Source of the DNA: an uncultured Clostridia bacterium
GTDB lineage: Bacteria; Bacillota; Clostridia; Oscillospirales; JAAYOS01
DNA length: 64,000 nt
Reading direction: 5' to 3'
NCBI GenBank assembly: GCA_947630675.1
Contig: CANRIN010000001.1
Location: forward strand, 5,361 to 69,360
Shown: one piece after another, positions 4,657 through 64,000 of the stretch
How positions within the stretch are numbered: position 1 is the first letter of the stretch
How the letters are laid out: each line of letters starts with the position of its first letter
Translations under genes and position numbers: made by a program
Notes under the pieces: model-generated
Seen by the model: the letters and a program-made list of their open reading frames with translations, nothing else
The model's database searches: none
What the model was told of the DNA's origin: nothing

Positions 4657-4695
4657 GGAGCTTTTCCGCCTTGTGGCGGGAAAGCTCCTTTCGCT
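4657..4695 (+). terminator. Terminator-like hairpin in the MFS leader (putative attenuator)
   Basis: GGAGCTTTTCCGCC-TTGT-GGCGGGAAAGCTCC followed by TTTCGCTTGC. It sits 28 nt before the MFS start. Confidence 0.45.
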
Positions 4696-4723
4696 TGCAA
4701 AAAAACGAAAAGGAGTCGCCAAA

Positions 4724-5899
4724 ATGAAGAACAGACTTAAAAATAACACAAAGCTTTTCTATATATTCAGATTTTTCGCACGCTTTGCAATGACCGAGGG
4801 CGTGTGGGTGCTCTATATGATCTCAAAGGGACTCTCGCTCTGGCAGGTGGGTGTGCTCGAAGGCGTCTACCATGCGGTGTCGCTTGTGGCGGAGGTGCCC
4901 TCCGGTGCGATAGCGGACCTGCTCGGCCGGAAGAAGGTGCTCATTGTGAGCCGCCTGCTCGCGTTCGCGAGCTCGATACCGATGATAATGTCGGACAACT
5001 TCTTTGTCCTCGCGTTCGGATTTGCGCTCACCGGCTTCGGCGGGAGCCTCATTTCGGGCACAGAGGACGCGCTCATCTACGACACCTACCTCGGGCTCGG
5101 CGAGGAGCGTCGCTTCCTCGGCGCGACGAGCCGCCTCGGCTTCATAGCGGAAGTGTCGGGTGGGATAGCGGTGCTCGCGGGCGGTATGCTCGCGAAGCGC
5201 TCCTACCAGCTCTGCTACCTCGTCGAGATGGGGATAACGGTGTTGTCCGTCGCGATATGCCTCCTCCTTTGCGAGCCGGAGACGGAAAAGAGGCGGGAGA
5301 AGCGTCCCACGCTCCGCGAGCACTTCCGCGCGAGCATGGACGTCATACGCGGCGACCGTGACGTACGCCGGCTGATAATACACTACTCGTTGCTCGAGAC
5401 GTTCTACGTCAGCGTGTACTTTTACAGTCAGGAGCTCTACCGCTCGCTCGGCTTTGACGAAGCGGGCATAAGCGTAATACTTCTCGGCGCGGGCGCGGCG
5501 GCGAGCGCGGGCGCGCTGCTCTGCGAGCGGACGGCGCGGCGGCTCGGACGGCACACCGAATTTGCGGCCGGTGCGGCGCTCGCGCTCGGGATAGCGGCGA
5601 TGGGCGCTCCGAGCGTCCCGTGCTCGCTTGCCGGATTTGCTCTCGCGAGCGCGGCGAGCGCCATGCTCTCGCCGCTCGGCTCCGCCGAGCTGAACCGGCG
5701 CATCCCCTCCGAGCGCCGCGCGACGCTCATCTCGGTGAAAAGCATGTGCTTCTCGGTGGGCATGATAGTTCTTTTCCCGCTGATAGGCGCCCTCGGGGAC
5801 ACCTTCACGCTCGCGCGGCTGCTCGTGCTGCTCGGCGCGGCGCTGGGAGTGTATGTCACAGCGAAGCTGCTCGCGGAAAATCGCGGCGGGCAGACGTAG
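4724..5899 (+). CDS. MFS transporter
   Basis: AAAGGAG RBS before ATG 4724 (ORF track opens at 4673). About 12 hydrophobic segments. GAIADLLGRKKV loop motif. Confidence 0.85.
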   Translation: MKNRLKNNTKLFYIFRFFARFAMTEGVWVLYMISKGLSLWQVGVLEGVYHAVSLVAEVPSGAIADLLGRKKVLIVSRLLAFASSIPMIMSDNFFVLAFGFALTGFGGSLISGTEDALIYDTYLGLGEERRFLGATSRLGFIAEVSGGIAVLAGGMLAKRSYQLCYLVEMGITVLSVAICLLLCEPETEKRREKRPTLREHFRASMDVIRGDRDVRRLIIHYSLLETFYVSVYFYSQELYRSLGFDEAGISVILLGAGAAASAGALLCERTARRLGRHTEFAAGAALALGIAAMGAPSVPCSLAGFALASAASAMLSPLGSAELNRRIPSERRATLISVKSMCFSVGMIVLFPLIGALGDTFTLARLLVLLGAALGVYVTAKLLAENRGGQT

Positions 5900-6100
5900 T
5901 CTGCCCACCCTACCAATTTTCCGCGAGGCCATCGGACAGAGCAGAGCTCTGCCGACGGCAGCGCCGGTCCTTGTTCCTCACGGCTTCGCCGCTTGAAACG
6001 CGACCGGCGCGAGGAGTAAATTTCGACGTACACGCCGTCGAAATTTACAAATCGAACCTTATTTCGCGCCATTGGCGTAAAACTGCGCTTGAGCGTTGAC
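5900..6100 (-). repeat. Modular hairpin repeat, locus 1 (core element, inverted)
   Basis: The reverse complement aligns to the core at 14561-14737. M2 hairpin 6016-6048, M4 bulged hairpin 5928-5959. Confidence 0.8.
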
Positions 6101-6126
6101 ACGACTCACTACGCTGCGCATTTTTG

Positions 6127-13594: not shown

Positions 13595-13894
13595 ATGGAT
13601 GAGCTGAAGGAAGTCCTCGCGGAGGTGCGCCGCATATCGCGCGCGGAGCGGCTGATAGTCTACGGCCTCAAGCGCGAGGGTGCGAGGGAGCGGATATGCG
13701 GCGTGAAGGTATGCGTCGTGGCGGACACGCGGGACAAGGACGCGCTTGAAAGGGAGCTGTACCTTGGCATAGACGGAGACGTCGCGCTCGACGTCCTCGT
13801 CTACACTCCGTCGGAGTGGGAGACGCTGCTGCGCGACCCGCAGTCCTACGCGAGCCGGATAGCCGAGAAGGGACGCGAGTATGTCGAGGCGTAA
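13595..13894 (+). CDS. Minimal nucleotidyltransferase (MNT)-fold protein, partner of HEPN
   Basis: About 99 aa with a DVLVYTPSEWE C-terminal motif. It overlaps the downstream HEPN gene by 14 nt. The GS...DxD catalytic motif is not recognisable. Confidence 0.7.
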   Translation: MDELKEVLAEVRRISRAERLIVYGLKREGARERICGVKVCVVADTRDKDALERELYLGIDGDVALDVLVYTPSEWETLLRDPQSYASRIAEKGREYVEA

Positions 13895-14354
13895 CACCGG
13901 CACAAACGACAGCCGTCGCTACTACGAATGGCTCGACCACGCCGAGACCGATCTTCGTGCGGCGAGGATACTGCGCGGCGTCGGAGCGGACGGCAGGACG
14001 GTCGTGTACCACTGTCACCAGGCGCTCGAAAAGAGCTTCAAGTGCTTCCTGCTCTTTCGGAACGGACGGCATGTCGACGGACACAACATCACCTTCCTCT
14101 CGCGTCAGGCGGCGCGCGCGGACAGAGGCTTTTCCAAGTTTGTGGACAGGACGCCGCCGTTCAACCGCTACTATATCGAGACGCGATACCCCACCGACCT
14201 GCCTTTCGAGATAGGCGAGCGTGAGCTTGAACAGGCGTTTTCGCTTGCGGAGGAGGTCTACGGCGCGGTCGCGCGCGCTGTCATGTACGAGATAAAGGAC
14301 GACATTGACGAGGACGAGGAGCGTGCCGCGCGCCGGGACGAAGCCGATTTGTAG
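13881..14354 (+). CDS. HEPN domain protein
   Basis: The YYIETRYPTD motif is typical of HEPN (PF05168-type) proteins paired with MNT. Confidence 0.8.
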   Translation: MSRRNTGTNDSRRYYEWLDHAETDLRAARILRGVGADGRTVVYHCHQALEKSFKCFLLFRNGRHVDGHNITFLSRQAARADRGFSKFVDRTPPFNRYYIETRYPTDLPFEIGERELEQAFSLAEEVYGAVARAVMYEIKDDIDEDEERAARRDEADL

Positions 14355-14394
14355 AAGACATCGAGCGGTCGCGACGAAGCCGGACACTGATATG

Positions 14395-14785
14395 ACTTCC
14401 ATGTGCGAAGTTAGCGGCTTTGCCGCTAACTTCGACCGCTGCAAACAGCGAAAGCGCGAACCAATTCTTCATCCTACACTCTACTGCTTTCGCCGGTAAT
14501 ATTCGCTCCGCGAATATTGCCCGACATTGAGCTCATTGTAGGACGGAGCGGCGCAACCAAGCCTCGCAGAGTTTCGCCGCGTAAGCGGCGAAATAGATTC
14601 AAATCATTTTCGGCGGCGGCGTGTACGTCGCCGAAAATACCTCTCGCGGAGCGTGCGTCGAAGACGGCGAAGCCGTCGAGGCGCGTAGCGGAGCGCCTGC
14701 CGTCGGCAGAGCTTCGCTCTGTCCGACGGCCTCGCGGCAAATTGGTAAGCGAGCGAAGCGAGCGCGATTTGCCGCGAGTCGCGAG
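14395..14785 (+). repeat. Modular hairpin repeat, locus 2 (partial type-C hairpin plus full core element)
   Basis: Hairpins at 14407-14433, 14572-14593 (M1), 14606-14638 (M2), 14663-14677 (M3), 14699-14730 (M4) and 14731-14778. Confidence 0.85.
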
Positions 14786-14787
14786 AT

Positions 14788-14819
14788 AGAAAAAACCGGA
14801 AAGCATAAGCTTTCCGGTT
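14788..14819 (-). terminator. rpmB terminator
   Basis: AACCGGAAAGC-loop-GCTTTCCGGTT followed by TTTTTT on the minus strand. Confidence 0.8.
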
Positions 14820-14840
14820 CCGGTCTCTACCTATCACCCG

Positions 14841-15210: not shown

Positions 15211-15239
15211 TGGACTTTGCCGCGCGCGTGTGATATAAT
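15211..15239 (+). promoter_or_regulatory. Candidate promoter with extended -10
   Basis: TGGACT, 17 nt spacer, TGaTATAAT. Confidence 0.4.
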
Positions 15240-15455
15240 AGTCGCGGCAAATCGCAGCCGCGCGCTCCGAGAGAGGAGCTTTTCCGACATACCGCCGTCG
15301 GAAAAACACATTGAAATTTGTTTTGCGCCCTTAGAGCCCTCCGGTAGGTATAAAGTCTGGCTTGCGGCGCTCTTCGCCGAAAGCGGATGCGCCCGGCAGA
15401 AAGTGCCGACACGGAACGAGCTGCACAGCTCTCTTGCCGCGATCATATATTTCCG
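15235..15455 (-). repeat. Modular hairpin repeat, locus 3 (type-B module plus 5' half of core, inverted)
   Basis: The reverse complement contains TTTTCCGAC-GGCGGTAT-GTCGGAAAA (an M2 variant), the CTCCTCTCTCGGAGCGCGC linker, and CCGGGCGCATC from the type-B module. Confidence 0.7.
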
Positions 15456-23208: not shown

Positions 23209-24393
23209 ATGAAGAGAATTATTTCCGCGGTAACGGCGGCGGTGCTGCTGCTCTGCTGCCTTGTCGTGCCCGCAGCGGCGGAGGACTACACGTTCAAGGA
23301 CAGGGACGGCACCGAGATAACCGTGCCGGACGGGGCTTTTGCCGCAAAGGTCGTGAGCTTCACCCCGGGCGACCCGTGGACAAACTATGAGGAACAGCAG
23401 AAGCAGAGCAATGTGCTCGGCGCCCCCGACCGTACCGGTGACGAGAGCACCAGCAAGGGCGACCTTTGCCTCGGCGCCGGCGGCGTTATCGTTCTGCAAT
23501 TCAATATAAACATATACGACGGAGAAGGACTGGATATATACGTCTTCGAGGTCGGCGCCGCCGTGGAGGACACCAAGGTCGAGGTCAGCAGCGATCTCGT
23601 GACCTGGTACGACGTCGGCGTCGCCGCCGGAAAGACCGCCGGCGTGGACCTGAACGGCAAGGTGCCGGAGGGCAGCCGCTTCCGCTATGTCCGCCTCACC
23701 GACCTGAATTCGTCTGCCAGCGGAGGATGGCCCGGCGCCGACATCGACGCGGTCTCCGGACTGAACGTCAAGTCGGTCACGCAGGATTGGGCGATCCCTG
23801 AGATAGATAAGGCCGAGGAGCTCGGCCTCATCCCTGACATCCTGAAGAATACGGACCTCACGCAGAACATCACCCGCGAGGAGTTTGCGGCTGTGTCCGT
23901 CAAGGTCTACGAGGCTCTTTCCGGAGTCAAGGCCATCCCCGCCGTCAACTGCCCGTTCACCGACACCGACAACGTGGAGGTCATGAAGGCGTACAACATC
24001 GGCGCGGTCAACGGCATCACCGTCGACCAGAGCCTGTTTGCTCCGCACGATTTCCTGAACAGGCAGCAGGCCGCCGCTATGCTGACCCGCGTGTTCAAGA
24101 AGGTCTCGATGGTTGGCTGGACGCTTGAAGACGACGCCAAGTTCCCGCTCACGTACACGCAGCCCGCGCCCTTTGCCGACGACGCCGACATATCCGGCTG
24201 GGCAAGGGAGAGCGTGTACTTCATGGCGGCGAACGGCATCATCAAGGGAGTCGAAGACAAGAAAACGGGCGCCTTCAATTTCAAACCTCAGAATACGACG
24301 ACCGATAGGGAGGCTACGGGTTACGCCAACGCCACCCGCGAGCAGGCGCTTGCCATCGCGGTGCGCATGGTGGAAAACCTGAAGCAGAGATAA
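23209..24393 (+). CDS. Secreted cell-surface protein with three C-terminal SLH repeats
   Basis: Signal peptide (ORF track opens at 23152). SLH-like repeats occur around REEFAAVSVKVY, NRQQAAAMLTRVF and TREQALAIAVRMV. Confidence 0.75.
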   Translation: MKRIISAVTAAVLLLCCLVVPAAAEDYTFKDRDGTEITVPDGAFAAKVVSFTPGDPWTNYEEQQKQSNVLGAPDRTGDESTSKGDLCLGAGGVIVLQFNINIYDGEGLDIYVFEVGAAVEDTKVEVSSDLVTWYDVGVAAGKTAGVDLNGKVPEGSRFRYVRLTDLNSSASGGWPGADIDAVSGLNVKSVTQDWAIPEIDKAEELGLIPDILKNTDLTQNITREEFAAVSVKVYEALSGVKAIPAVNCPFTDTDNVEVMKAYNIGAVNGITVDQSLFAPHDFLNRQQAAAMLTRVFKKVSMVGWTLEDDAKFPLTYTQPAPFADDADISGWARESVYFMAANGIIKGVEDKKTGAFNFKPQNTTTDREATGYANATREQALAIAVRMVENLKQR

Positions 24394-32748: not shown

Positions 32749-32777
32749 TTGACAAATATGAGACAGCGGTGTATACT
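32749..32777 (+). promoter_or_regulatory. Consensus-like promoter of the DUF2500 gene array
   Basis: TTGACA, 17 nt spacer, TATACT. Confidence 0.7.
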
Positions 32778-32822
32778 CACAATAAAGTTACCACCATAAC
32801 ACTTCAGAGAGGAGCTGTCGAA

Positions 32823-33227
32823 ATGATACATCTTTTTATGAGCGTGGATCTGGAGGAGACCTATAGGGTTGTGGCGGCAGTAATAGCTGAGGTGCTGCTT
32901 ATACTGTCGGTAGTGGTGATAATTGCCGCGGCCGTGTGGCACTTCGTAAAGAAGTACCGTCTGAATAACGGCATCGGAAAGACCGTACCCGCGACGTTCG
33001 AGTCGAGCAGCTATGTGCGCGGCAGGGCAAACCTCGCGGACAAGGGACGCGTCGCGGGCAACGCCGTTGCCGTCGCCCTGGAGCACCGTCTGCTTACCTT
33101 CCGCTGCGAGAACGGGAAAGAGCTCCGCTTCGCGGTGGATACGGACGTCGCCCACGACTGGCGCGAGGACTCGGAAGGCAGACTCACATACAACGGGCGT
33201 CAGTTCATAGGCTTCGAGGCGAACTGA
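32823..33227 (+). CDS. DUF2500 (YhhM-like) membrane-anchored protein, paralog 1
   Basis: N-terminal TM helix. GKTVPATFE, LLTFRCENGKELRFAV and EGRLTYNGRQFIGF match the E. coli YhhM pattern GTLSYKGTRFVSF. Confidence 0.8.
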   Translation: MIHLFMSVDLEETYRVVAAVIAEVLLILSVVVIIAAAVWHFVKKYRLNNGIGKTVPATFESSSYVRGRANLADKGRVAGNAVAVALEHRLLTFRCENGKELRFAVDTDVAHDWREDSEGRLTYNGRQFIGFEAN

Positions 33228-33280
33228 CTTTGGCGGCGGATCGCGCTGCCTGGCGGGTACAATGAAAGAGGTGCGAAAAT

Positions 33281-33655
33281 ATGCCGAAATATGTCAACTG
33301 GACCGCACACGGCGTCTTTCTCATGGGGCTCTTTATAGCGGGCGTTGCGGTGATAGGGGGCGCTGTTGCGTGGTTCCTCATAAAGAAGCTGCGCACGAAG
33401 CTCAAAATGGGCAGGACAGTGCCCGCGACGTTTGAGGCGCGCGAGCATATTCTGAACACCGTATATTTCCCGCAGATGCACGTGCAGAGCACACGCAATC
33501 TGCCGGTAGAGTATAATCTGCTCACGTTCCGCGACAAAGCCGGAAAGCTGCTCCGCTTTGCGGTGAATCCGAACGCCTGGTGCAGCTGGAACGAGGGCGC
33601 GGAGGGCAAGCTCACCTACAACGGAAGTCAGTTCATAGGGTTCGAGACTAACTGA
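33281..33655 (+). CDS. DUF2500 (YhhM-like) membrane-anchored protein, paralog 2
   Basis: Same architecture: GRTVPATFE, LLTFRDKAGKLLRFAV, EGKLTYNGSQFIGF. Confidence 0.8.
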   Translation: MPKYVNWTAHGVFLMGLFIAGVAVIGGAVAWFLIKKLRTKLKMGRTVPATFEAREHILNTVYFPQMHVQSTRNLPVEYNLLTFRDKAGKLLRFAVNPNAWCSWNEGAEGKLTYNGSQFIGFETN

Positions 33656-33707
33656 ACTTTCCGGCGGCTCCGCGCCGCCGGGCAATATAGTGAAAGAGGG
33701 GTTGTAT

Positions 33708-34112
33708 ATGAGGGGCGCAGTATACGCAGTGACGATAGAAGACGCCGGTATGTGGATAGGAATAGCGACTATCGGAGCCATCTTTATCGCGTTTGCCGCG
33801 TATGTCATCTACCGGTTCGTGAGGCGGTTCATTCTCGACTCGCCGAGGAGGAGCGTGACCGTCCCGGCCGTCTTTCTCGAGCGGGCGGTCGTCAAGGGCA
33901 AGGTGCCGATAAGCGACCGCGGGCGGCACGAGATGGCGGCTACCGGGGGAAACAACGTCGTCGTTGAGAACTACTTCGTCGCCTTCCGCGACGGGGACGG
34001 CAAGGTCCTGAAGTTCTTTGTGGACGGAGAGACCTGTCGCGGCCTCGGCAACGGCTGCGAGGGCAGCCTCACATACAGCGGCAAGCGCTTTATGAGCTTT
34101 GCCGTGAAGTAA
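33708..34112 (+). CDS. DUF2500 (YhhM-like) membrane-anchored protein, paralog 3
   Basis: GAAAGAGGGG RBS before ATG 33708. TVPAVFLER, FVAFRDGDGKVLKFFV, EGSLTYSGKRFMSF. Confidence 0.8.
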   Translation: MRGAVYAVTIEDAGMWIGIATIGAIFIAFAAYVIYRFVRRFILDSPRRSVTVPAVFLERAVVKGKVPISDRGRHEMAATGGNNVVVENYFVAFRDGDGKVLKFFVDGETCRGLGNGCEGSLTYSGKRFMSFAVK

Positions 34113-34177
34113 AGCCGGAACGTCCCGCCCGGGCGGTATGTTATAAGTAACGCATATTACGAAAGGGGTTCTATGTT

Positions 34178-34567
34178 ATGTTAAAAGGATTCGGAATATT
34201 GATGACCGCCGCCACCGTCGGCGCGGGAACGTGGGTAGGGATAGCGGCCTGCGTGCTGATACTCGCGGCGCTCCTGATATACACGGGGACGAGGCTCGCG
34301 CGCCTGTTCGGCAAGCCGACGACTGTCGACGCGGTGTTCCTCCACGAGGCGGGCTCGGTCGTGAACACCGCCGCCACCGACCGCGCGCGGATGGCCAAGG
34401 AGGGCGCTTCGATAGCGCTCGAGAACCACGTCCTCTGCTTTGAAAACGGGGCGACCGGCGAAGAGATGCGCTTCTCGGTCTCCGGCGACTGCCGCACATG
34501 GCCGGAGGGCAAGCAAGGCAGACTTACATACAGCGGGAAGCGGTTTATTGAGTTCAAAGCGGAATAA
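34178..34567 (+). CDS. DUF2500 (YhhM-like) membrane-anchored protein, paralog 4
   Basis: TVDAVFLHE, VLCFENGATGEEMRFSV, QGRLTYSGKRFIEF. Confidence 0.8.
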   Translation: MLKGFGILMTAATVGAGTWVGIAACVLILAALLIYTGTRLARLFGKPTTVDAVFLHEAGSVVNTAATDRARMAKEGASIALENHVLCFENGATGEEMRFSVSGDCRTWPEGKQGRLTYSGKRFIEFKAE

Positions 34568-34902: not shown

Positions 34903-34983
34903 GGTCGGGACGTCGGCGCGAAGCGCCGACGTCTGATGCGCCCGGTAGAAAGTCGGATGCGGTATGGGTTCGAGGGCGCATTC
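34903..34983 (-). repeat. Modular hairpin repeat, locus 4 (type-B module only, inverted)
   Basis: The reverse complement aligns with 57374-57450 (GAATGCGCCC...CTACCGGGCGCATCAG...GGCGCTxCGCGCCGACGTCCC). Confidence 0.8.
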
Positions 34984-35012
34984 TTGACAAGCGCCGCGCA
35001 CTGTGTTATGAT
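34984..35012 (+). promoter_or_regulatory. Promoter of the ABC-F leader
   Basis: TTGACA, 17 nt spacer, TGtTATGAT extended -10. Confidence 0.7.
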
Positions 35013-38425: not shown

Positions 38426-38599
38426 AGGCGTTTTTCACGCCTTGCCTTCGTAGATGCGAACGCATTTGAGGAGCATGCGGTGCGGAAACTGACCGAAAGG
38501 GCTATCGGCGGCTGCGTCCCCGGGAGTCTGGACACGTTTTTCGACGAAGAACTGGCGGCGGAGATGGACGGCGGGGTCAAGCGACCCCGCCGTCACAGC

Positions 38600-38947
38600 T
38601 TGTCGAAAAGCCTCGCAGAGTTTCGCCGCGTCAGCGGCAAAATAGGTTTCAATCTGGTTTTTCCGGCGGCGTGTACGTCGGAAAAAACTCCTCTCGCGGA
38701 GCGCGCTTCGAAGCGCCGCAGGCGGTTCCGCGCCGGTTCGCGCGGTTAAAGTTGCTTGCCTATGGCAAGCAACTTTGCGGAGCCAGAATTCATTTCCGGC
38801 GAGCATTTCAATCAGAAGGGCTCCCACGCGGCCCAGCCGCGTGGGAATTGCAGAGCGGAGCGTTGCCGTCGGCATGGCTGTGCCCTGTCCGACGGCCTCG
38901 CGGGAAACAGGTTGCGGGCTTTGCCCGCAACCTGTTTCCCGCGAAAG
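38600..38947 (+). repeat. Modular hairpin repeat, locus 5 (core element with a nested type-C module and a terminal long hairpin)
   Basis: GCCTCGCAGAG at 38610, M2 at about 38658-38688, nested unit 38744-38851, M4 38865-38896, 21-bp perfect hairpin 38899-38943. Confidence 0.85.
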
Positions 38948-41896: not shown

Positions 41897-41950
41897 TTCA
41901 CGGCTGATTGCGGGAGCGGGCTTTCGCCCGCTCCCGCAATCAGCCGTGAA
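41897..41950 (-). terminator. 25-bp perfect hairpin terminator
   Basis: TTCACGGCTGATTGCGGGAGCGGGC-TTTC-GCCCGCTCCCGCAATCAGCCGTGAA, followed by ATTTTT on the minus strand. Confidence 0.75.
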
Positions 41951-41957
41951 AAATCCG

Positions 41958-42383
41958 TTACGCGCGGCACAGCCTTATCATAAGGCAGAAACCGCCGTCC
42001 GAGACGGCGACGCTCACCGTGGCGTCTCCGTTTTGCAGCAGCTCTGCCGACGCGCCGCTCTCGTCCGCGTGCTCAAGCGGCTCGAACCCGCTTGACCGCA
42101 GCAGCGCGACATACTCGTCTCCCTGCTCCCGCGCGGCATGAAAGGCAACTGAGAAGTATCCCGCGCTCTCGTCGCAGACCGTCGCGCTGTAAGGCGTTCC
42201 GGACTCCGGACGGGGAACGGAGGATGTGTAGACGTTCTCCGGCCACGCGTCTATACTCTCCCACTCAAGCGTAGGAAGTCCGCCCGACGGCTTCGAGCCG
42301 CCGCTCCGTGCGCCGTATGCGCATATGCCTGCTGCTGCGGCGAGCAGTACGAGCAGCACGGCGGCAGCGAGGAACTTTTTCAT
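41958..42383 (-). CDS. Small secreted/membrane-anchored protein, unknown function
   Basis: N-terminal hydrophobic signal/anchor. Only 6 nt downstream of the XRE gene (likely an operon). Confidence 0.6.
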   Translation of the reverse strand: MKKFLAAAVLLVLLAAAAGICAYGARSGGSKPSGGLPTLEWESIDAWPENVYTSSVPRPESGTPYSATVCDESAGYFSVAFHAAREQGDEYVALLRSSGFEPLEHADESGASAELLQNGDATVSVAVSDGGFCLMIRLCRA

Positions 42384-50672: not shown

Positions 50673-50707
50673 AAAACACCGGAGGGTATACCCTCCGGTG
50701 TTTTTTT
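50673..50707 (+). terminator. trmD operon terminator
   Basis: ACACCGGAGGG-TATA-CCCTCCGGTGT followed by TTTTTT. Confidence 0.85.
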
Positions 50708-50764
50708 GCGTCTGTCTCCGCAAATCGCGGACGCGGATCTCTGACATTGTATACGGAGTACGCT

Positions 50765-51215
50765 TAGCTTCGCAGAGTTTCGCAATTCCCAAACGCTCCT
50801 TTGGAGCGTTTGGGAGCCCTTCCGATTGAAATACTCGCCGGAAATGAATTCCGGCTCCGCGAAGTTAACGGCTTTGCCGTTAACTTCAACCGCGCGAACC
50901 GGCGCGGACGGCGCTTTGCGCCGTTTTGAAATTGGAACAGCCTCGCAGAGTTTCGCGCCGGAAGGCGCGAAATAGATTCTAATCCGTTTTTTCCGACGGC
51001 GTGTGCGTCGGAAAAAACTCTTTGCGCAAAGCGTGCGTCGATTTTTCGCCGAAGGCGGAAAACTCGGCGCGTAGCGCAGCGCATGCTGTCGGTAGGGCTT
51101 CGCCCTATCCGACAGCTTCACTTGAAATTGCGTCGCGCAATTTCAAGTGAAAGTCTCGGCGCGAAAGGGTGCGCAGGGCAATTCATTGCCCGAGCACATT
51201 TCGCGCCGAAGCGAA
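50765..51215 (+). repeat. Modular hairpin repeat, locus 6 (largest array: inverted type-C module, full core, extra hairpins)
   Basis: Type-C unit 50782-50891 (inverted relative to 38744-38851). Core from 50940 with M1 50951-50972, M2 50987-51017, M3 about 51043-51063 and M4 51085-51116. Further hairpins extend to 51210. Confidence 0.85.
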
Positions 51216-54023: not shown

Positions 54024-54305
54024 ATTGCAGAACCGCACGACCGGCTTTGTGCGTGTCTGCCGCCCGCTTTCCGGCAAAGAGACTCAGACACGGCTGCCCC
54101 GCGGCACATCGGCAGTCACTGCTTAATGCTGCTCGGTTCCCCGCCTGACATGGTTCGCAGGCTCCGATTGCGCGGGACCGTATCCTCAACATCCCCGTAC
54201 CGGGGCTGCCACCGACAGACTCCGCCCGGGGCCGGTCATCACCCCAACTGTAGCGGATTGAAGGTACAGGGCGCCGCTGCTGCCCCGGCTGTGCGGTTCT
54301 GCAAT
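54024..54305 (-). ncRNA. ffs: Signal recognition particle RNA, long (Bacillus/Clostridia) type with Alu domain
   Basis: On the minus strand, GGCGCCCTGTACCTTCAATCCGCTACAG (Alu domain) and GTCAGGCGGGGAACCGAGCAGCATTAAG (domain IV GGAA/AGCA) match the B. subtilis scRNA. The terminal helix TTGCAGAACCGCAC.../...GTGCGGTTCTGCAA closes the molecule. The scr-dnaX-ybaB-recR order is conserved. Confidence 0.88.
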
Positions 54306-57299: not shown

Positions 57300-57690
57300 T
57301 CGCCGGCGCAAACCCGCCGCCGAGTCCGGCCAGCCTCGCTAAAGCTCGCTGCCAGCTTCAAAAGCCTCGCAGAGAATGCGCCCGCGAACCTCTACCGCAC
57401 TCAACCCTCTACCGGGCGCATCAGCATTCGGCGCTCCGCGCCGACGTCCCGCCAAAAGCCTCGCAGAGTTTCGCCGCTAAAGCGGCGAAATAAACTCTAA
57501 TCATTTTCGGCGGCGGCGTGTACGTCGCCGAAAATACCTCTCACGGAGCGTGCGTCGATTTTCCGCCGAAGGCGGAAAACTCGGCGCGTAGCGGAGTGTT
57601 GCCGCCGGCAGAGCTTTGCTCTGTCCGGCGGCCTCGCTGTGAATAGGTGCAGGAGCGGGCAAAGCCCGCTCCTGCACCTATTCACAGCGA
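57300..57690 (+). repeat. Modular hairpin repeat, locus 7 (type-B module plus full core plus 25-bp terminal hairpin)
   Basis: Type-B 57374-57450. Core from 57458 with M1 57469-57490, M2 about 57503-57536 and M4 57601-57632. Perfect hairpin 57636-57688. Confidence 0.85.
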
Positions 57691-57728
57691 AAAAACACGG
57701 GGAAGCTGCGTTATCACGCAGCTTCCCC
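57690..57728 (-). terminator. Terminator of the zinc-ribbon gene
   Basis: GGGGAAGCTGCG-loop-CGCAGCTTCCCC followed by GTGTTTTTT on the minus strand. Confidence 0.8.
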
Positions 57729-57758
57729 ATGTGCAGGCAGTCCTGTGGACCGAGCAGC

Positions 57759-60393: not shown

Positions 60394-62133
60394 ATGAAGA
60401 AGTTTATTGCCCTTCTTCTCGCTCTGCTGATGATGGCGGGTCTGCTGGCCGGCTGCGGCGGCGGCGGCGAGGAGACAACTTCCCAAGAGCCTTCTTCCGG
60501 GACGACGAGCACCGAGCCCACCAACGCCCCGACCTATGAGGCTCCGACGGAGAGCGTAGAGCCGACCGAGATCGAGCTGCCGCTTGTTGAAGACATCCAT
60601 GAGTTCGAGTATTGGATTGCCAACGGCTACTCCTTCGAAGAGTTCTCGACCTACGCGGACAACCTGTTCTTCCAGTGGATGGAAGATCAGACCAACGTCC
60701 ACATCAAGTGGAACCACCCCGCTTCCGGCTCCGAGAGCGAGGCATTCCAGACCATGATCCTTTCGAATGAGCTTCCTGACTTCATCCAGTCGGTCAAGAA
60801 CTACTACACCGGCGGCGTCGACAAGATGGTCAATGACGGATATCTCCAGCCCCTCAACGATTACATGGACCTTATGCCCAACTACAAGGCTAAGCTCTAT
60901 CGTGACGAGGAGACCTTCATTCAGGGCGTTTCCGATGAAGGCAACATCTGGGCCATCCACCACATAGTCGACGTCCCGCAGGGCGCGTGGTTCGGCTTCG
61001 GCGTCCGTCAGGACTGGCTCGATGACCTCGGCATCGACATCAGCACCGCCGAGACCATCGATGGCCTCGAGACCATCCTCACCGCGTTCAAGGACAAGAC
61101 CTACAACCATGTTGGTCCGCTGTGGCTGTCGAACGGCGGCTTCAGCCCGTCCCACGCTCTTAACGGCTCCTACGGCGTTACCGGCGTCAACAACGGCGCT
61201 ATCATGCAGAAGGGCGAGACCGCTGTTTACACCGCTCTCGAGCCCGGCTTCAAGGATTACGTCGCTAAGATAGCTGACTGGTATGCCAAGGGCCTCGTTC
61301 ACAGCGAGTACATAGCCACCGCTTCCTGGTCGACTCCTGAGGACCGTTGGGTCAACAGCGAGGTCGGCGTGGGCGACTTCATCTACACCTCTGATAAGCT
61401 GTACGCTGCTTCCGCTGCGATAAGCGAGCTCCAGCCCGATCCGGACTTCAAGCTCAGCGCTATCTCCAGCCCGAAGCTCGACGCGAGCATGGATTGGTCC
61501 GACATCCATCTCCGCAACAACCAGGATAAGATCCGTTCCGGCAACTCCATGGGCATCACCACCCAGTGCAACGACCTCGAGCTTGCCTGCAAGTATTGGA
61601 ACTACGCCTGGAGCGAAGAGGGCATCGAGGCTTCCAACTGGGGCCCGTACCTCGGTGAAGAGGGCGACACCAACGCCACTTACTTCATCGATCCCGATGA
61701 TACCAATGGCGACGGTCACGTCGAGTGCTATCAGCCTTGGCTGATGGAGAAGTACAACAACGTCACCAACGTCCAGGTCAAGGTCGCTTGCCACAACCTG
61801 CCGACCTACTCCATCTGGAGCCGTGAATGGTGCACGCTTGAGCCGTACCAGATCGAGTACACCGAGATTTGGGACCGCGTTGGCGCTGAGTACTGCTGGC
61901 CTGAGGGCGTTACCCTCACCACCGACGAAGGCACCCGCGCATCGGCTATCATGACCGACTGCAACGGCATCGTCAACGAATGGGTCGCTAACGTTGTTAC
62001 CGGCACCACCAGCGTCGACACTTACGACGATATGTGCAAGCAGCTCAAGGACAACAACATCGATGAGGCTGTTGCCTGCTACCAGGCTGCTCTTAGCCGT
62101 TACAACGAGCGTATCAAGTACATGGGCCAGTAA
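60394..62133 (+). CDS. Large extracellular solute-binding lipoprotein of a carbohydrate ABC transporter (LplA-like)
   Basis: AGGAGG RBS and LLAGCGGGG lipobox. About 580 aa, which fits the large family-1 SBPs. Confidence 0.85.
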   Translation: MKKFIALLLALLMMAGLLAGCGGGGEETTSQEPSSGTTSTEPTNAPTYEAPTESVEPTEIELPLVEDIHEFEYWIANGYSFEEFSTYADNLFFQWMEDQTNVHIKWNHPASGSESEAFQTMILSNELPDFIQSVKNYYTGGVDKMVNDGYLQPLNDYMDLMPNYKAKLYRDEETFIQGVSDEGNIWAIHHIVDVPQGAWFGFGVRQDWLDDLGIDISTAETIDGLETILTAFKDKTYNHVGPLWLSNGGFSPSHALNGSYGVTGVNNGAIMQKGETAVYTALEPGFKDYVAKIADWYAKGLVHSEYIATASWSTPEDRWVNSEVGVGDFIYTSDKLYAASAAISELQPDPDFKLSAISSPKLDASMDWSDIHLRNNQDKIRSGNSMGITTQCNDLELACKYWNYAWSEEGIEASNWGPYLGEEGDTNATYFIDPDDTNGDGHVECYQPWLMEKYNNVTNVQVKVACHNLPTYSIWSREWCTLEPYQIEYTEIWDRVGAEYCWPEGVTLTTDEGTRASAIMTDCNGIVNEWVANVVTGTTSVDTYDDMCKQLKDNNIDEAVACYQAALSRYNERIKYMGQ

Positions 62134-62448: not shown

Positions 62449-64000
62449 ATGAAGAAGTTTATTGCCCTTCTTCTCGCTCTGCTGATGATGGCGGGCCTGC
62501 TGGCCGGCTGCGGCGGCGGTGGCGAGGAGACCACCTCCACCGAGCCTTCCGGGACGACGAGCACCGAGCCCACCACCGCCCCGAGCTTTGAAGGCCCCGT
62601 GGAGACCAGCGACGATCCGGCAGGGATAGTGCTGCCGCTCGTTGACGACGTCCATGATTTCGAGTACTGGATCGAGAATCCGTATTCCTTTGAGGACTTC
62701 TCGACCTACGGGGACAACCTTTTCTTCCAGTGGATGGAGGAGAAGACCAACGTCCACATCGTCTGGAACCATCCCGCTTCCGGCTCCGTTTCCGAGGCGT
62801 TCCAGACCATGATACTCTCCAATGAGCTGCCCGACTTCATCCAGGGCGTCAAGGGTTACTACACCGGCGGCGTCGACAAGATGGTCAATGACGGATATCT
62901 CCAGCCGCTCAACGACTACATGGACATCATGCCTCACTACAAGGCCAAGCTCTACGAGGACGAGACGACCTTCATCCAGTGCGTCTCCGACGAAGGCAAC
63001 ATCTGGGGCATCCATCAGATATGCGACCGTCCGCAGGGCGCATGGTTCGGCTTCGGCGTCCGTCAGGACTGGCTTGACGACCTCGGTATCGACATCAGCA
63101 CCGCCGAGACGATAGACGGCCTCGAGACCATACTCACCGCCTTCAAGGACAAGACCTACAACAACAACGGCCCGCTGTGGCTCTCCGGCGGCAGCTTCAG
63201 CCCGTCCTGCGCGCTGAACGGCTCCTACAACGTCGCTTCGGTCACCTGGTCGAACAACGGCATCATCAACAAGGACGGCACCGCCGTTTACAGCCCGCTT
63301 GAGCCCGGCTTCCGTGACTACGTCGCGAAGATAACCGACTGGTATGCCAAGGGCCTCATCCACACCGAGTACATAGCCACCTCCTCCTGGTCGACCCCGG
63401 ATGACCGCTGGGTCAACAGCGAGGTCGGCGTGGGCGACTTCGTCTACACCAACGACAAGATGCTCGCTCAGTCCGCTGCGATAAGCGAGCTCATGCCCGA
63501 CCCGGACTTCGCGCTCAGCGCCATCACCACCCCGAAGGTCGACGCGAGCATGGACTGGAGCGACATCCATCTCCGCAACCGTCAGGATAAGGTCTTCTCG
63601 GTCAACTCCATGGGCATTTCCACCCAGTGCAACGACCTTGAGCTTGCCTGCAAGTATTGGGACTATGCGTTCACCGACGAAGGCATTGAGGCCGCCAACT
63701 GGGGTCCTGTTGAAGGCCCGGAGGGCGACGCCAACGCCACCTACTTCGTCGACCCGGCCGACACCAACGGCGACGGACATCAGGAGTGCTATCAGCCCGC
63801 TCTGATGGAGAAGTACGACAACAACGTCACCAACGTTCAGGTCAAGGTCTCGAGCTTCCTCACCCCAGGCTACCGTATATGGAGCCGCGAGTGGTGCACG
63901 CTTGAGAAGTACCAGATAGACTACTGCAACACCTGGGACAAGGTCGGCATCGAGTATGTCTGGCCGGACGGCGTTACCCTCACCGCGCAGGAAGGCACCG
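62449..64000 (+). CDS. Second large solute-binding lipoprotein, tandem paralog (3' end outside window)
   Basis: ATG 62449 after AGGAGG. The signal peptide and lipobox DNA are nearly identical to 60394 onward. The frame stays open to the window edge. It is missing from the ORF track because no stop codon is reached. Confidence 0.85.
   Translation, partial: MKKFIALLLALLMMAGLLAGCGGGGEETTSTEPSGTTSTEPTTAPSFEGPVETSDDPAGIVLPLVDDVHDFEYWIENPYSFEDFSTYGDNLFFQWMEEKTNVHIVWNHPASGSVSEAFQTMILSNELPDFIQGVKGYYTGGVDKMVNDGYLQPLNDYMDIMPHYKAKLYEDETTFIQCVSDEGNIWGIHQICDRPQGAWFGFGVRQDWLDDLGIDISTAETIDGLETILTAFKDKTYNNNGPLWLSGGSFSPSCALNGSYNVASVTWSNNGIINKDGTAVYSPLEPGFRDYVAKITDWYAKGLIHTEYIATSSWSTPDDRWVNSEVGVGDFVYTNDKMLAQSAAISELMPDPDFALSAITTPKVDASMDWSDIHLRNRQDKVFSVNSMGISTQCNDLELACKYWDYAFTDEGIEAANWGPVEGPEGDANATYFVDPADTNGDGHQECYQPALMEKYDNNVTNVQVKVSSFLTPGYRIWSREWCTLEKYQIDYCNTWDKVGIEYVWPDGVTLTAQEGT

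Follow-up and report, generated by a model that had tools for sequence, protein, structure and literature searches.

The 64-kb window, by which we mean the whole stretch of 64,000 nt that was analysed, carries seven loci built from shared hairpin modules. Their core is very probably a non-autonomous transposable element (MITE) of ~200-240 nt without genes, and with similar confidence we regard the window loci as copies, fragments and nested insertions of a MITE family of Oscillospiraceae. Small size, no coding capacity, many dispersed copies, terminal inverted repeats (TIRs), target duplication and empty sites are all found in the family. Integration takes place precisely where an intrinsic-terminator hairpin has its foot, whichever way round the element lies, and the whole hairpin is duplicated on both sides of the element.

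The earlier note on this DNA had listed the seven loci, and all are present with modules in common, as seen with a repeat finder and in the sequences themselves (Table 1; the gene calls of the window were verified with Pfam). The stems it quoted for M1, M2 and M4 are correct. It had also described an M1-M2-M3-M4 core in five copies. Five core copies exist, but the one at 38610 is without M3, and an insertion of ~140 nt separates its M2 from M4. M1 is diverged in the copy at 5900-6100. Each core is closed by a long, copy-specific perfect hairpin that is absent from the previous description of the unit. The loci had been called strictly intergenic, which is not quite so, as the terminal hairpin of the 5870-6107(-) copy overlaps the final 9 codons of the MFS ORF (4673-5899).

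Table 1. Copies, modules and fragments of the element in the window. R1 is the covariance model of M1 plus M2.
Feature	Position	Strand	Parts	R1 match, bits	Context
Diverged full copy	5870..6107	(-)	TIR-L-like GAGTCGTGTCAACGC 6093-6107; M1-like 6061-6086; M2 6016-6048; M3 ~5968-6000; M4 with bulged T 5928-5959; copy-specific terminal hairpin 5870-5927	5989-6097(-), 66 (65.8)	antisense, between MFS (+) and methyltransferase (+)
Accessory hairpin modules	14395..14556	(+)	hairpins 14407-14433, 14497-14522		5' of copy 2
Full copy (copy 2)	14557..14785	(+)	GCCTCGCAGAG 14561-14571; M1 14572-14593; M2 14606-14638; M3 ~14643-14695; M4 14699-14730; terminal hairpin 14731-14785	14557-14665, 113	
Partial/rearranged inverted copy	15235..15455	(-)	M2-like hairpin 15283-15315; module-B-related piece 15365-15400	15251-15365(-), 27 (E 2.4e-4)	divergent rpmB/Bmp spacer
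Solo module/element B	34906..34984	(-)	AATGCGCCC...GGGCGCATCAG + hairpin GTCGGCGCTTCGCGCCGAC		
GC-rich hairpin	38567..38594	(+)	GACGGCGGGGTC-AAGC-GACCCCGCCGTC		directly abuts 5' end of copy 5
Copy 5	38595..38945	(+)	TIR-L CAGCTTGTCGAAAA 38596-38609; GCCTCGCAGAG 38610-38620; M1; M2 38657-38689; inserted module set 38716-38845; M4 38865-38896; terminal hairpin 38898-38945	38606-38715, 103	
5'-end fragment, then inserted module set	50763..50935	(+)	fragment GCTTCGCAGAGTTTCGC 50767-50783		
Full copy 6	50936..51152	(+)	M1 50951-50972; M2 50987-51017; M3; M4 51085-51116; terminal hairpin 51117-51152	50936-51045, 113	between trmD (+) and recR (-)
Locus 7 5' end	57349..57374	(+)	CAGCTTCAAAAGCCTCGCAGAG; TIR-L-like plus linker		
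Element B, 79 nt	57375..57453	(+)			nested inside 5' end of copy 7
Full copy 7	57454..57690	(+)	M1 57469-57490; M2 57503-57535; M3; M4 57601-57632; terminal hairpin 57634-57690	57454-57562, 116	antisense, between PAP2 (-) and zf_Tbcl gene (-)

In the window subfamily, other small modules, B among them, are nested in or beside the copies. The module at 34906-34984(-) is distinct from the core; it shows 85% identity to 57373-57451 by the repeat finder and is preceded by the TIR-L-like CTTGTCAAG. At locus 7, the nested B is flanked by a 15-nt direct repeat, AAAAGCCTCGCAGAG, at 57360-57374 and 57454-57468, the first of which lies within the 5' end of the locus. In L025 and L055, B is found inside the M2 loop. 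The insert of copy 5 is partly the reverse complement of 50802-50908 (repeat finder), and the module set in front of copy 6 is inverted relative to locus 5. Since the 17-nt motif at 50767-50783 occurs again at 50940-50956, this insert is bracketed by a direct repeat. The accessory hairpin 14407-14433 is found again at 50865-50890; some relatives have the accessory block and others are without it. Hairpins and terminators also lie next to the copies. A bidirectional terminator common to HEPN (+) and rpmB (-) follows copy 2 at 14791-14822, and copy 7, whose terminal hairpin is a perfect one of 27 bp, adjoins the terminator of the zf_Tbcl gene (57700-57735). Near copy 6, trmD has its own terminator (50673-50704), and an additional hairpin (51156-51210) lies 3' of that copy. 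The GC-rich hairpin at copy 5 is in the position of a target hairpin.

The canonical order of the element is the left TIR CAGnnTGTCRAAAAAG, the linker GCCTCGCAGAG, M1, an A/T-rich spacer, M2, M3 and, at the terminus, a foldback hairpin with the right inverted repeat as its 3' arm. The M2 loop is conserved as GGCGTGTACG or GCGACATGTGCG, and M3 is a long hairpin with conserved internal loops. The TIRs in relatives read 5'-CAGnnTGTCRAAAAAG...CTTTTTYGACAnnCTG-3', and the inverted ends CAGTCTGTCGAAAAAG / CTTTTTCGACAGTCTG are located at the junctions with the duplicated flanks. In nearly all copies the 5' and 3' ends are mismatched at 5-7 of 16 positions, so that the 3' end is not definable by self-complementarity to the 5' end. 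The window lineage is a diverged subfamily with an extra, bulged-T M4 and long copy-specific terminal hairpins. A clear left TIR is seen in the window only at copy 5, and degenerate ones are at 57349-57359 and 6093-6107. Judging from the homology of M1-M3 and the linker to well-bounded copies elsewhere, the window copies appear to be members of the same family. Only spurious ORFs run over the elements, and one RefSeq 'hypothetical protein' is located inside a copy. The TIRs, the association with terminators and the target duplication, which the earlier note had missed, are obvious only from related genomes.

At least 16 of ~100 copies stand between direct repeats, 11-34 nt long and specific to the locus, and each of these repeats is a complete terminator hairpin. 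One repeat ends ~15 nt 5' of GCCTCGCAGAG, and the other begins directly after ...TTTTTCGACAGTCT. A repeat of at least 13 nt is estimated to occur by chance in fewer than 1 per 1,000 copies. Duplication of the terminator hairpin is also seen at 4-5 of the 12 copies in the finished genome of the isolate V. fastidiosa. A hairpin of at least 9 bp stands within 45 nt upstream in 55 of 117 copies, compared with 8 of 117 shuffles, and its foot abuts the element end in 37 of those 55. At the window's own copies no intact target duplication was seen.

Filled and empty forms of the same site can be compared. The site downstream of uvrC is empty in L281, which has a single terminator, AAAAATGACCGCCGGAGGCGGTCATTTTTT. 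It is filled in V. fastidiosa MM35, where the L281-type hairpin flanks a full element on both sides, and in L282 the same hairpin flanks on both sides a short deletion form consisting of M1 and the terminal hairpin. In a second pair, a 45-49-nt spacer with one terminator (12 contigs) stands against hairpin-element-hairpin in MM35. The cyclase locus does not fit so simply, since the hairpin duplicated in MM35 shows no relation to the terminator found in the empty alleles, which are 97% identical, and an extra step is needed. The 8 SNPs found in 40 nt beside the junction suggest that an allele was imported by recombination. No convincing excision footprints (tandem terminators without an element) were found in 1.1 Mb, and 200 kb of V. 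fastidiosa contain no further copies of the flanking hairpins that could have served as donors. A search for empty sites by exact recR protein yielded one short contig only, and at the oxidoreductase locus the relatives are not syntenic.

The family is dispersed, as had been claimed, with copies far outside the window rather than confined to it. The 17-mer GCCTCGCAGAGTTTCGC matched more than 116 contigs, nearly all of them from Oscillospiraceae. The R1 model was run on the window, where five strong matches and one weak match were obtained, and on 200 kb of the finished V. fastidiosa replicon, where there are 12 full and 2 partial copies; the density is ~1 copy per 11-14 kb. The copies within a genome are 71-95% identical to each other (median 79%), indicating that many are old and yet have retained their folding. 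Orthologous spacers differ in their content. Among relatives with 90.5-92.4% identity in the HEPN gene, the HEPN-rpmB spacer measures 376, 486 or ~600 nt, and the orthologous element in it either carries B, at one and the same position, or is without it; the rpmB/Bmp spacer of relatives is occupied by other elements. Over the time in which strains and species diverge, copies come and go, undergo internal deletion and insert into one another. Among 89 loci, 45 lie between convergent genes, 22 are co-directional antisense, 16 co-directional sense and 6 divergent. The copies favour gene 3' ends, without orientation preference.

The compensatory stem changes described earlier are genuine. Every core is more stable than shuffled sequence, with folding z of -6.9 to -14.6. 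In a set of 50 copies (5 from the window and 45 from other genomes), 97.1% of M1+M2 positions pair, compared with 80.6% in shuffles, and both sides have changed in 16 of the 22 pairs. The covariation of 0.422 (0.124 when shuffled) was matched by none of 500 shuffles, and slid controls gave pairing of at most 56%. The unpaired T of M4, said to be the same in all copies, is constant in position across 9 stem variants in various genomes. The loops, internal loops and M4 bulge are conserved between genera, suggesting that a protein or RNA makes specific contact with them. The idea that M1-M4 are captured target hairpins was dropped, because conserved loops make the modules homologous.

Such features recall a family of structured RNAs with the fold under selection, either trans-acting small RNAs or cis-acting 3'-UTR elements, the latter serving as stabilisers, terminators or protein-binding sites. 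RNA was one of the two options that the earlier note had offered. The folding energies are very low, the covariation is strong, the loops, internal loops and bulged T stay constant despite many stem variants, a G.T atop M2 is kept in 32 of 50 copies, and the majority of copies lie directly 3' of a gene. We nevertheless find an RNA very unlikely. Orientation relative to flanking transcription is mixed, 16 sense to 22 antisense overall and 1 to 4 in V. fastidiosa, and both co-directional copies of the window are antisense; many copies are insulated by a terminator on either side, and no conserved promoter-like sequence was seen at the 5' end. Once the one conserved position atop M2 is excluded, the non-Watson-Crick cells hold 12 G.T and 10 A.C, so the stems are near-perfect palindromes in which G.T is about as rare as A.C. 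Presence or absence and module content also differ at orthologous sites of close relatives. No Rfam family fits, in agreement with the claim that the family is unnamed: SRP RNA alone passes a gathering-threshold scan of the window, and an E-value scan of 14380-14830 gave only sub-threshold matches, the best being Cupriavidus-1 (24.3 bits, gathering score 45.5). The compensatory changes need not imply RNA function and may represent the upkeep of DNA palindromes, through selection for transposition competence, templated correction within quasi-palindromes, or both. The DNA-level option, the other one offered, is retained here.

At the DNA level, REP/BIME-like palindromes moved as single-stranded hairpins by a RAYT or IS200/IS605-type Y1 (HUH) transposase had been suggested, and there is a resemblance in the clustered, mosaic, hairpin-rich arrays of imperfect palindromes at gene ends, the high copy number and the compensatory stem changes. 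The present unit is 200-240 nt with five different hairpins, whereas a REP is one palindrome of 20-40 nt that begins with a conserved GTAG/GTGG and is tied to a Y1 transposase. To our knowledge, IS200/IS605-type elements and REPs have neither inverted ends nor target duplications, unlike the elements here with their TIRs and long duplications. The GTAG 5' of M4 in three window copies, proposed as a REP guide, is a conserved part of the M3 3' internal loop and reads GCAG in most relatives. The Rfam match to the REP-derived naRNA4 (22.7 bits, E 0.07) is far under the gathering score of 59.5, and no RAYT was met in the genome portions examined. This origin is hardly credible. Integron attC sites, IS110 bridge-RNA ends and TnpB/IscB omega-RNAs were also ruled out; no recombinase or nuclease is adjacent, and these have neither inverted ends nor long target duplication. 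A further reading, which overlaps with the MITE one, is that the elements spread as MITEs and are now kept for host use as domesticated DNA sites, for instance as additional terminators or insulators where genes converge, as sites bound by nucleoid or topoisomerase proteins, or as recombination hot spots. The high density, the enrichment between convergent genes (45 of 89), the internal loop sequences shared across genera and the folding of old copies would agree with it, but orthologous sites are often empty or filled differently, which argues against site-specific necessity. We consider this reading unlikely. The MITE reading is preferred.

No autonomous partner or transposase was found in the window, ~0.8 Mb of MAG loci, 200 kb of V. 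fastidiosa, viral contigs or PLSDB. TIR pairs 0.06-4 kb apart in 116 loci are all MITE-sized, and blastn of PLSDB with the canonical and a window copy hit only the V. fastidiosa chromid. All-vs-all blastp of the locus proteins gave no transposase-like cluster of multi-copy proteins, none of the ORFs beginning just 3' of M1 is transposase-like, and the 200 kb of V. fastidiosa have no annotated transposases. An IMG/VR scan for CAGNNTGTCRAAAAAGCC returned mostly chance matches in a phage gene and few MITEs. The top candidate of a generic scan for direct repeats plus inverted ends (L048, 476-2171) proved to be argJ flanked by another repeat. With no transposase in the sequence searched, the enzyme class can only be inferred; our best guess would be a DDE enzyme that targets hairpins, of the kind found in the IS1182/IS1272 family, the nearest known model for the integration. 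A DDE-type transposase would act in trans and recognise structure in the DNA (an extruded hairpin or cruciform) and not its sequence. The element ends would be joined to the two 5' feet of the stem, and gap repair would then duplicate the stem-loop. We propose only tentatively that a transposition system reads intrinsic terminators purely as DNA structure, cuts both hairpin feet and copies the terminator to either side. The enzyme of such a system could be a new branch of the hairpin-targeting transposases, and the genus-spanning loops, internal loops and bulge could be its recognition code.

Few gut bacteria are as abundant, or as hard to work with, as the Oscillospiraceae. An element at every ~11-14 kb shapes their intergenic DNA, breaks metagenome assemblies and creates spurious ORFs in annotation. 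Because of its textbook covariation, it could easily be mistaken for a structured RNA in comparative screens. Its insertion polymorphisms are ready-made strain markers, and the duplicated terminators may change read-through between convergent genes. Dozens of natural junctions record structure-directed integration in which a terminator hairpin was duplicated as a whole, and they make the cruciform-attack model for hairpin-targeting transposases directly testable. If the structure-reading system is real, the element would generally drive the duplication and turnover of terminators across a dominant gut bacterial family.

Nothing was found in the literature on a MITE or hairpin repeat of Oscillospiraceae or Ruminococcaceae, and in the searchable literature no MITE was found with documented structure-directed terminator duplication. 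The closest likeness in targeting is to IS1272/TnSha1 of the IS1182 family, whose insertions enter terminator hairpins regardless of sequence and lie in both orientations (PMC4923244). As in the present elements, a DNA secondary structure is targeted, in most cases a rho-independent terminator of ~22-30 bp directly 3' of a gene, primary sequence is not read, and the TIRs are ~16 bp (PMC4923244, PMC5678879). Some copies (IS1272L) have one end repeated internally, which can be likened to the terminal foldback of the present elements. IS1272, however, removes or replaces the hairpin that it targets, with no duplication left behind, whereas the present element duplicates the whole hairpin; for IS1272 this outcome, predicted when the element enters at the 5' feet of a cruciform, is drawn only as hypothetical pathway b (PMC5678879, Fig. 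13). The present elements also differ in being 200-240 nt without an ORF, and the sequence searched yielded neither an IS1182-type transposase nor an autonomous element to match. They share with IS1182 the targeting of palindromes or terminator hairpins irrespective of sequence.

BOX of Streptococcus pneumoniae, known with RUP and SPRITE, has a modular boxA-boxB(n)-boxC build with variable module numbers; these small repeats cluster and nest between genes, and no transposase is known for them (PMC3049150, PMC10969869). The modular build, and the clustering and nesting of different small repeats between genes, are alike in the present family, but there is no sequence similarity and the host clade is different. 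We know of no report that BOX targets or duplicates terminator hairpins. Bacterial MITEs such as Correia/NEMIS, ERIC, RUP, Chunjie and QMITE are small, non-coding, multi-copy elements with TIRs and target duplications, and they have stable folds, a mostly intergenic location, size variants from internal deletion and insertion polymorphism among strains (PMC10969869). All these general traits are also seen in the present elements. They depart from other MITEs in that their target duplication of 11-34 nt is set by the size of the hairpin, in contrast to a fixed stagger of 2-10 bp, and in that their interior is made up of several separate hairpins, each with covarying stems, and not of a single long foldback.

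The repeat loci of the window (G+C about 60%) were recovered by a repeat finder, which confirmed the family of hairpin modules (M1 to M4, in order along the core) reported in the earlier note; the modules it quoted were all present on reading of the loci. The repeat finder linked direct copies at 14680–14744, 38846–38910, 51066–51130 and 57582–57646, with 5911–5961 as an inverted copy of the same set. Segments 14559–14661 and 57456–57558 match at 94%, 34906–34984 and 57373–57451 are inverted copies at 85%, and more pieces are common to 38727–38835 and 50802–50908. The five cores, folded as single strands, reach z-scores of −6.9 to −14.6 relative to dinucleotide shuffles. Motif counts show that the linker GCCTCGCAGAG and the M2 loop CGGCGTGTRCGTCG are much commoner than expected by chance.

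Repeat loci and other features of the window, with sites of element B (a separate module of about 79 nt) in other genomes; genes were called with a codon-usage model and then checked against Pfam
Feature	Position	Strand	Left gene	Right gene	Remarks
Repeat locus	5900–6100	−	MFS (+)	methyltransferase (+)	
Repeat locus	14561	+	HEPN (+)	rpmB (−)	
Repeat locus	15235–15455		rpmB (−)	Bmp (+)	
Repeat locus	38610	+	AAA_18 protein (+)	csoR-like (−)	
Repeat locus	50940	+	trmD (+)	recR (−)	
Repeat locus	57458	+	PAP2 (−)	zinc-finger gene (−)	
Element B	34906–34984				alone
Element B	57375–57453, inside copy 7				bracketed by 15-nt direct repeat
Element B	L025, L055 (other genomes)				inside M2 loop
Small ORFs	32769–34567				four tandem paralogues, 125–153 aa, period about 430–457 nt (repeat families D5, D12)
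SRP RNA, large, Firmicutes-type	54033–54296	−			Rfam RF01854, 145.8 bits; flanked by 32-nt inverted repeat 54013–54044/54285–54316
Tandem paralogous genes	60394–62133, 62449–63999+				580 aa and >517 aa; 2055-nt period and 75–94% nucleotide identity

The loci had been called strictly intergenic, but the terminal hairpin of the inverted 5900–6100 copy contains the last 9 codons and stop (5870–5899) of the MFS ORF 4673–5899, so the C-terminus of this transporter may be element-derived. Separately, a perfect 25-bp hairpin lies between A- and T-runs at 41897–41950, downstream of ORF 41958–42383(−). Its inner stem GGAGCGGGC/GCCCGCTCC is that of the copy 7 terminal hairpin (57652–57672); the 25-bp hairpin could be either what remains of a lone terminal hairpin or just a long terminator.

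The family is not confined to the window. An exact scan for GCCTCGCAGAGTTTCGC, with one genome per species, found it in at least 116 contigs, almost all from Oscillospiraceae, including Oscillibacter, Scatomorpha, Avoscillospira, Papillibacter cinnamivorans DSM 12816 and many MAGs; the few matches in other phyla are due to chance. One architecture is common to these copies: an A-run, GCCTCGCAGAG, M1 (TTTCGCnnn/nnnGCGAAA), an A/T-rich spacer, M2 with an A/T-rich base, a variable G/C top and the loop GGCGTGTACG or GCGACATGTGCG, a long hairpin with conserved internal loops CAAGTGTG ... TGCGCGCAG (AGCGTGCGTCGA ... GGCGCGTAGCGGAGCG in the window), and a terminal hairpin. Short forms (L013, L060 and L061, from other genomes) comprise M1 and the terminal hairpin only. 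The GTAG once likened to a REP guide tetranucleotide is part of the M3 3′ internal loop and reads GCAG in most relatives.

The compensatory stem changes were borne out. On 50 copies, M1 and M2 pair at 97.1%, against 80.6% in shuffles and at most 56% in slid controls, and both sides change in 16 of the 22 pairs. The constant bulged T of M4 likewise persists in all nine stem variants. A covariance model built from the 50-copy M1+M2 alignment identified 6 copies in the window and 12 full plus 2 partial copies in 200 kb of replicon pMM35_01 of the finished isolate Vescimonas fastidiosa MM35, a density of one copy per 11–14 kb.

The ends of the element were located from its flanks. Similarity among several copies of one MAG begins about 15 nt upstream of the linker, and one copy there carries the same terminator hairpin on both sides. 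For each copy we took the longest word common to the 110 nt upstream and the downstream region. The background is 6–10 nt, with a tail of 11–34 nt in about 17 copies, and every repeat in this tail consists of a hairpin, specific to its locus, with A- and T-tracts. One repeat copy ends directly before CAG(T/C)nTGTC(G/A)AAAAAG (TIR-L, the left terminal inverted repeat), and the other begins directly after the complementary ...TTTTTCGACAGTCT(G/C). Together these are terminal inverted repeats and a target-site duplication spanning a whole intrinsic terminator. The same duplication is found in 4–5 of 12 copies of the finished MM35 genome, and is therefore not an artefact of MAG assembly. A hairpin of at least 9 bp occurs within 45 nt upstream in 55/117 copies, compared with 8/117 shuffles, its foot touching the element end in 37 of these 55. 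Because the M4 3′ arm and the following CCTCGCGG resemble TIR-L plus linker, M4 may be the relic of a junction at which two ends met.

At uvrC, filled and empty sites were found when contigs of V. fastidiosa UvrC homologues were looked up. In a strain with 98% identical UvrC, just one terminator, AAAAATGACCGCCGGAGGCGGTCATTTTTT, follows uvrC. At this place MM35 has the AAAAATGACCGCCGGAGGCGGTCATTTTTT hairpin, a full inverted element and the hairpin repeated, and in a third strain (UvrC 99%) these two hairpin copies enclose the short M1+terminal-hairpin form. The site shows that an element inserted, that the resident hairpin was duplicated, and that the short form arose in place through an internal deletion. 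At the convergent cyclase/GATase_3 pair, 12 contigs have a 45–49-nt spacer holding one terminator, 7 of them with flanks 97% identical to MM35, which has hairpin-element-hairpin. The hairpin duplicated in MM35 (L251 41240–41550) is unrelated to the empty-allele terminator (L270–L277), and SNP density climbs beside one junction (8 SNPs in 40 nt); the filled allele may have been imported by recombination.

Instability is just as marked at the loci of the window itself. An exact match to the L28 protein is encoded on 23 contigs, whose HEPN gene is 90.5–92.4% identical to the window's. The HEPN-rpmB spacer measures 376, 486 (as in the window) or about 600 nt. In five relatives the window's arrangement also contains element B (about 110 nt), placed directly after GCCTCGCAGAG; others carry quite unlike sets of modules. 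Depending on the relative, the rpmB-Bmp spacer contains a complete inverted element (TIR CAGATTGTCAAACGCC), the same partial one as the window, or neither. At 13595–14354, a 99-aa ORF overlapping the HEPN-domain gene gives the pair a toxin-antitoxin-style look, and the pair is kept beside rpmB in all relatives found. Since its sites vary (M2 loop, solo, within copy 7), element B is mobile or recombinogenic. At locus 6 (50765–51215) a 17-nt repeat of the element 5′ end stands on either side of another module set, and in the copy from 38596 TIR-L still directly abuts a hairpin. The repeat-bracketed element B and locus-6 set, and the differing content in relatives, indicate that the window loci are insertions of a diverged subfamily, nested in or abutting one another.

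The earlier note proposed a folded RNA or single-stranded DNA. Folding with covarying stems stands, and would suit an RNA function, but other observations argue against RNA. Copies between co-directional genes are sense in 16 and antisense in 22 cases, 45/89 lie between convergent genes, and the annotated copies of V. fastidiosa agree with this. Where the terminator is duplicated around a copy, read-through into it is blocked from either side. RNA under selection would tolerate G.U and not A.C, yet with one conserved G.T set aside, 1,093 stem cells contain 12 G.T and 10 A.C. Rfam has no match for the family. Thus the covariation is of the kind shown by DNA palindromes. Such covariation would be expected if the hairpins play a part in transposition, and template switching within quasi-palindromes would also give it without selection.

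Other repeats and genes were seen in the related genomes. In L048 (476–2171), argJ lies between inverted copies of a different repeat (TGTGTCTAAAGCG...), is also flanked by a 20–26-nt duplicated hairpin inside a longer palindrome, and has a tandem 22–23-nt repeat GCGCCGCATCCCTCGCGGCAGA beside it. A second hairpin family, GGATTGCCAC-hairpin-TCGCAATGACAGG, occurs one to three times and with differing inner hairpins in Vescimonas-like spacers (L237 about 23790–23860, L281, L282, L004, L279). The RefSeq hypothetical protein KI236_RS09015 lies wholly within an element copy (L237 1927–2106, NZ_AP023416.1 376926–377105) and is probably not a real gene. Near the start of the V. fastidiosa chromid record (NZ_AP023416.1) lies a Tn916-like conjugative element (L249 3572–17739) encoding MobT relaxase, FtsK/SpoIIIE, ArdA and conjugal transfer proteins.

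The observation of the earlier note is confirmed, and its interpretation gives way to a better-supported one: the element is very probably a MITE. The kind of element is known but the family is new, and its unusual target choice is informative on mechanism. Literature searches turned up no repeats of this sort in the clade, and MITEs that duplicate terminators are not described in a 2024 review of the prokaryotic ones (PMC10969869). No transposase for the element was found in the window, about 0.8 Mb of MAG loci, 200 kb of V. fastidiosa, a viral-contig scan or PLSDB. Among documented systems, IS1272/TnSha1 (IS1182 family) behave most similarly: they insert into 22–30-bp terminator hairpins regardless of sequence, in either orientation and directly 3′ of genes, and delete the target hairpin (PMC4923244, PMC5678879). 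By this likeness and the matching product described below, the element might tentatively be mobilised in trans by a structure-directed DDE transposase of that kind. IS1272/TnSha1 remove the hairpin, whereas the present element duplicates it; insertion at the 5′ feet of a cruciform was predicted, as a hypothetical pathway, to duplicate the whole stem-loop (PMC5678879), and this is exactly the product seen here.
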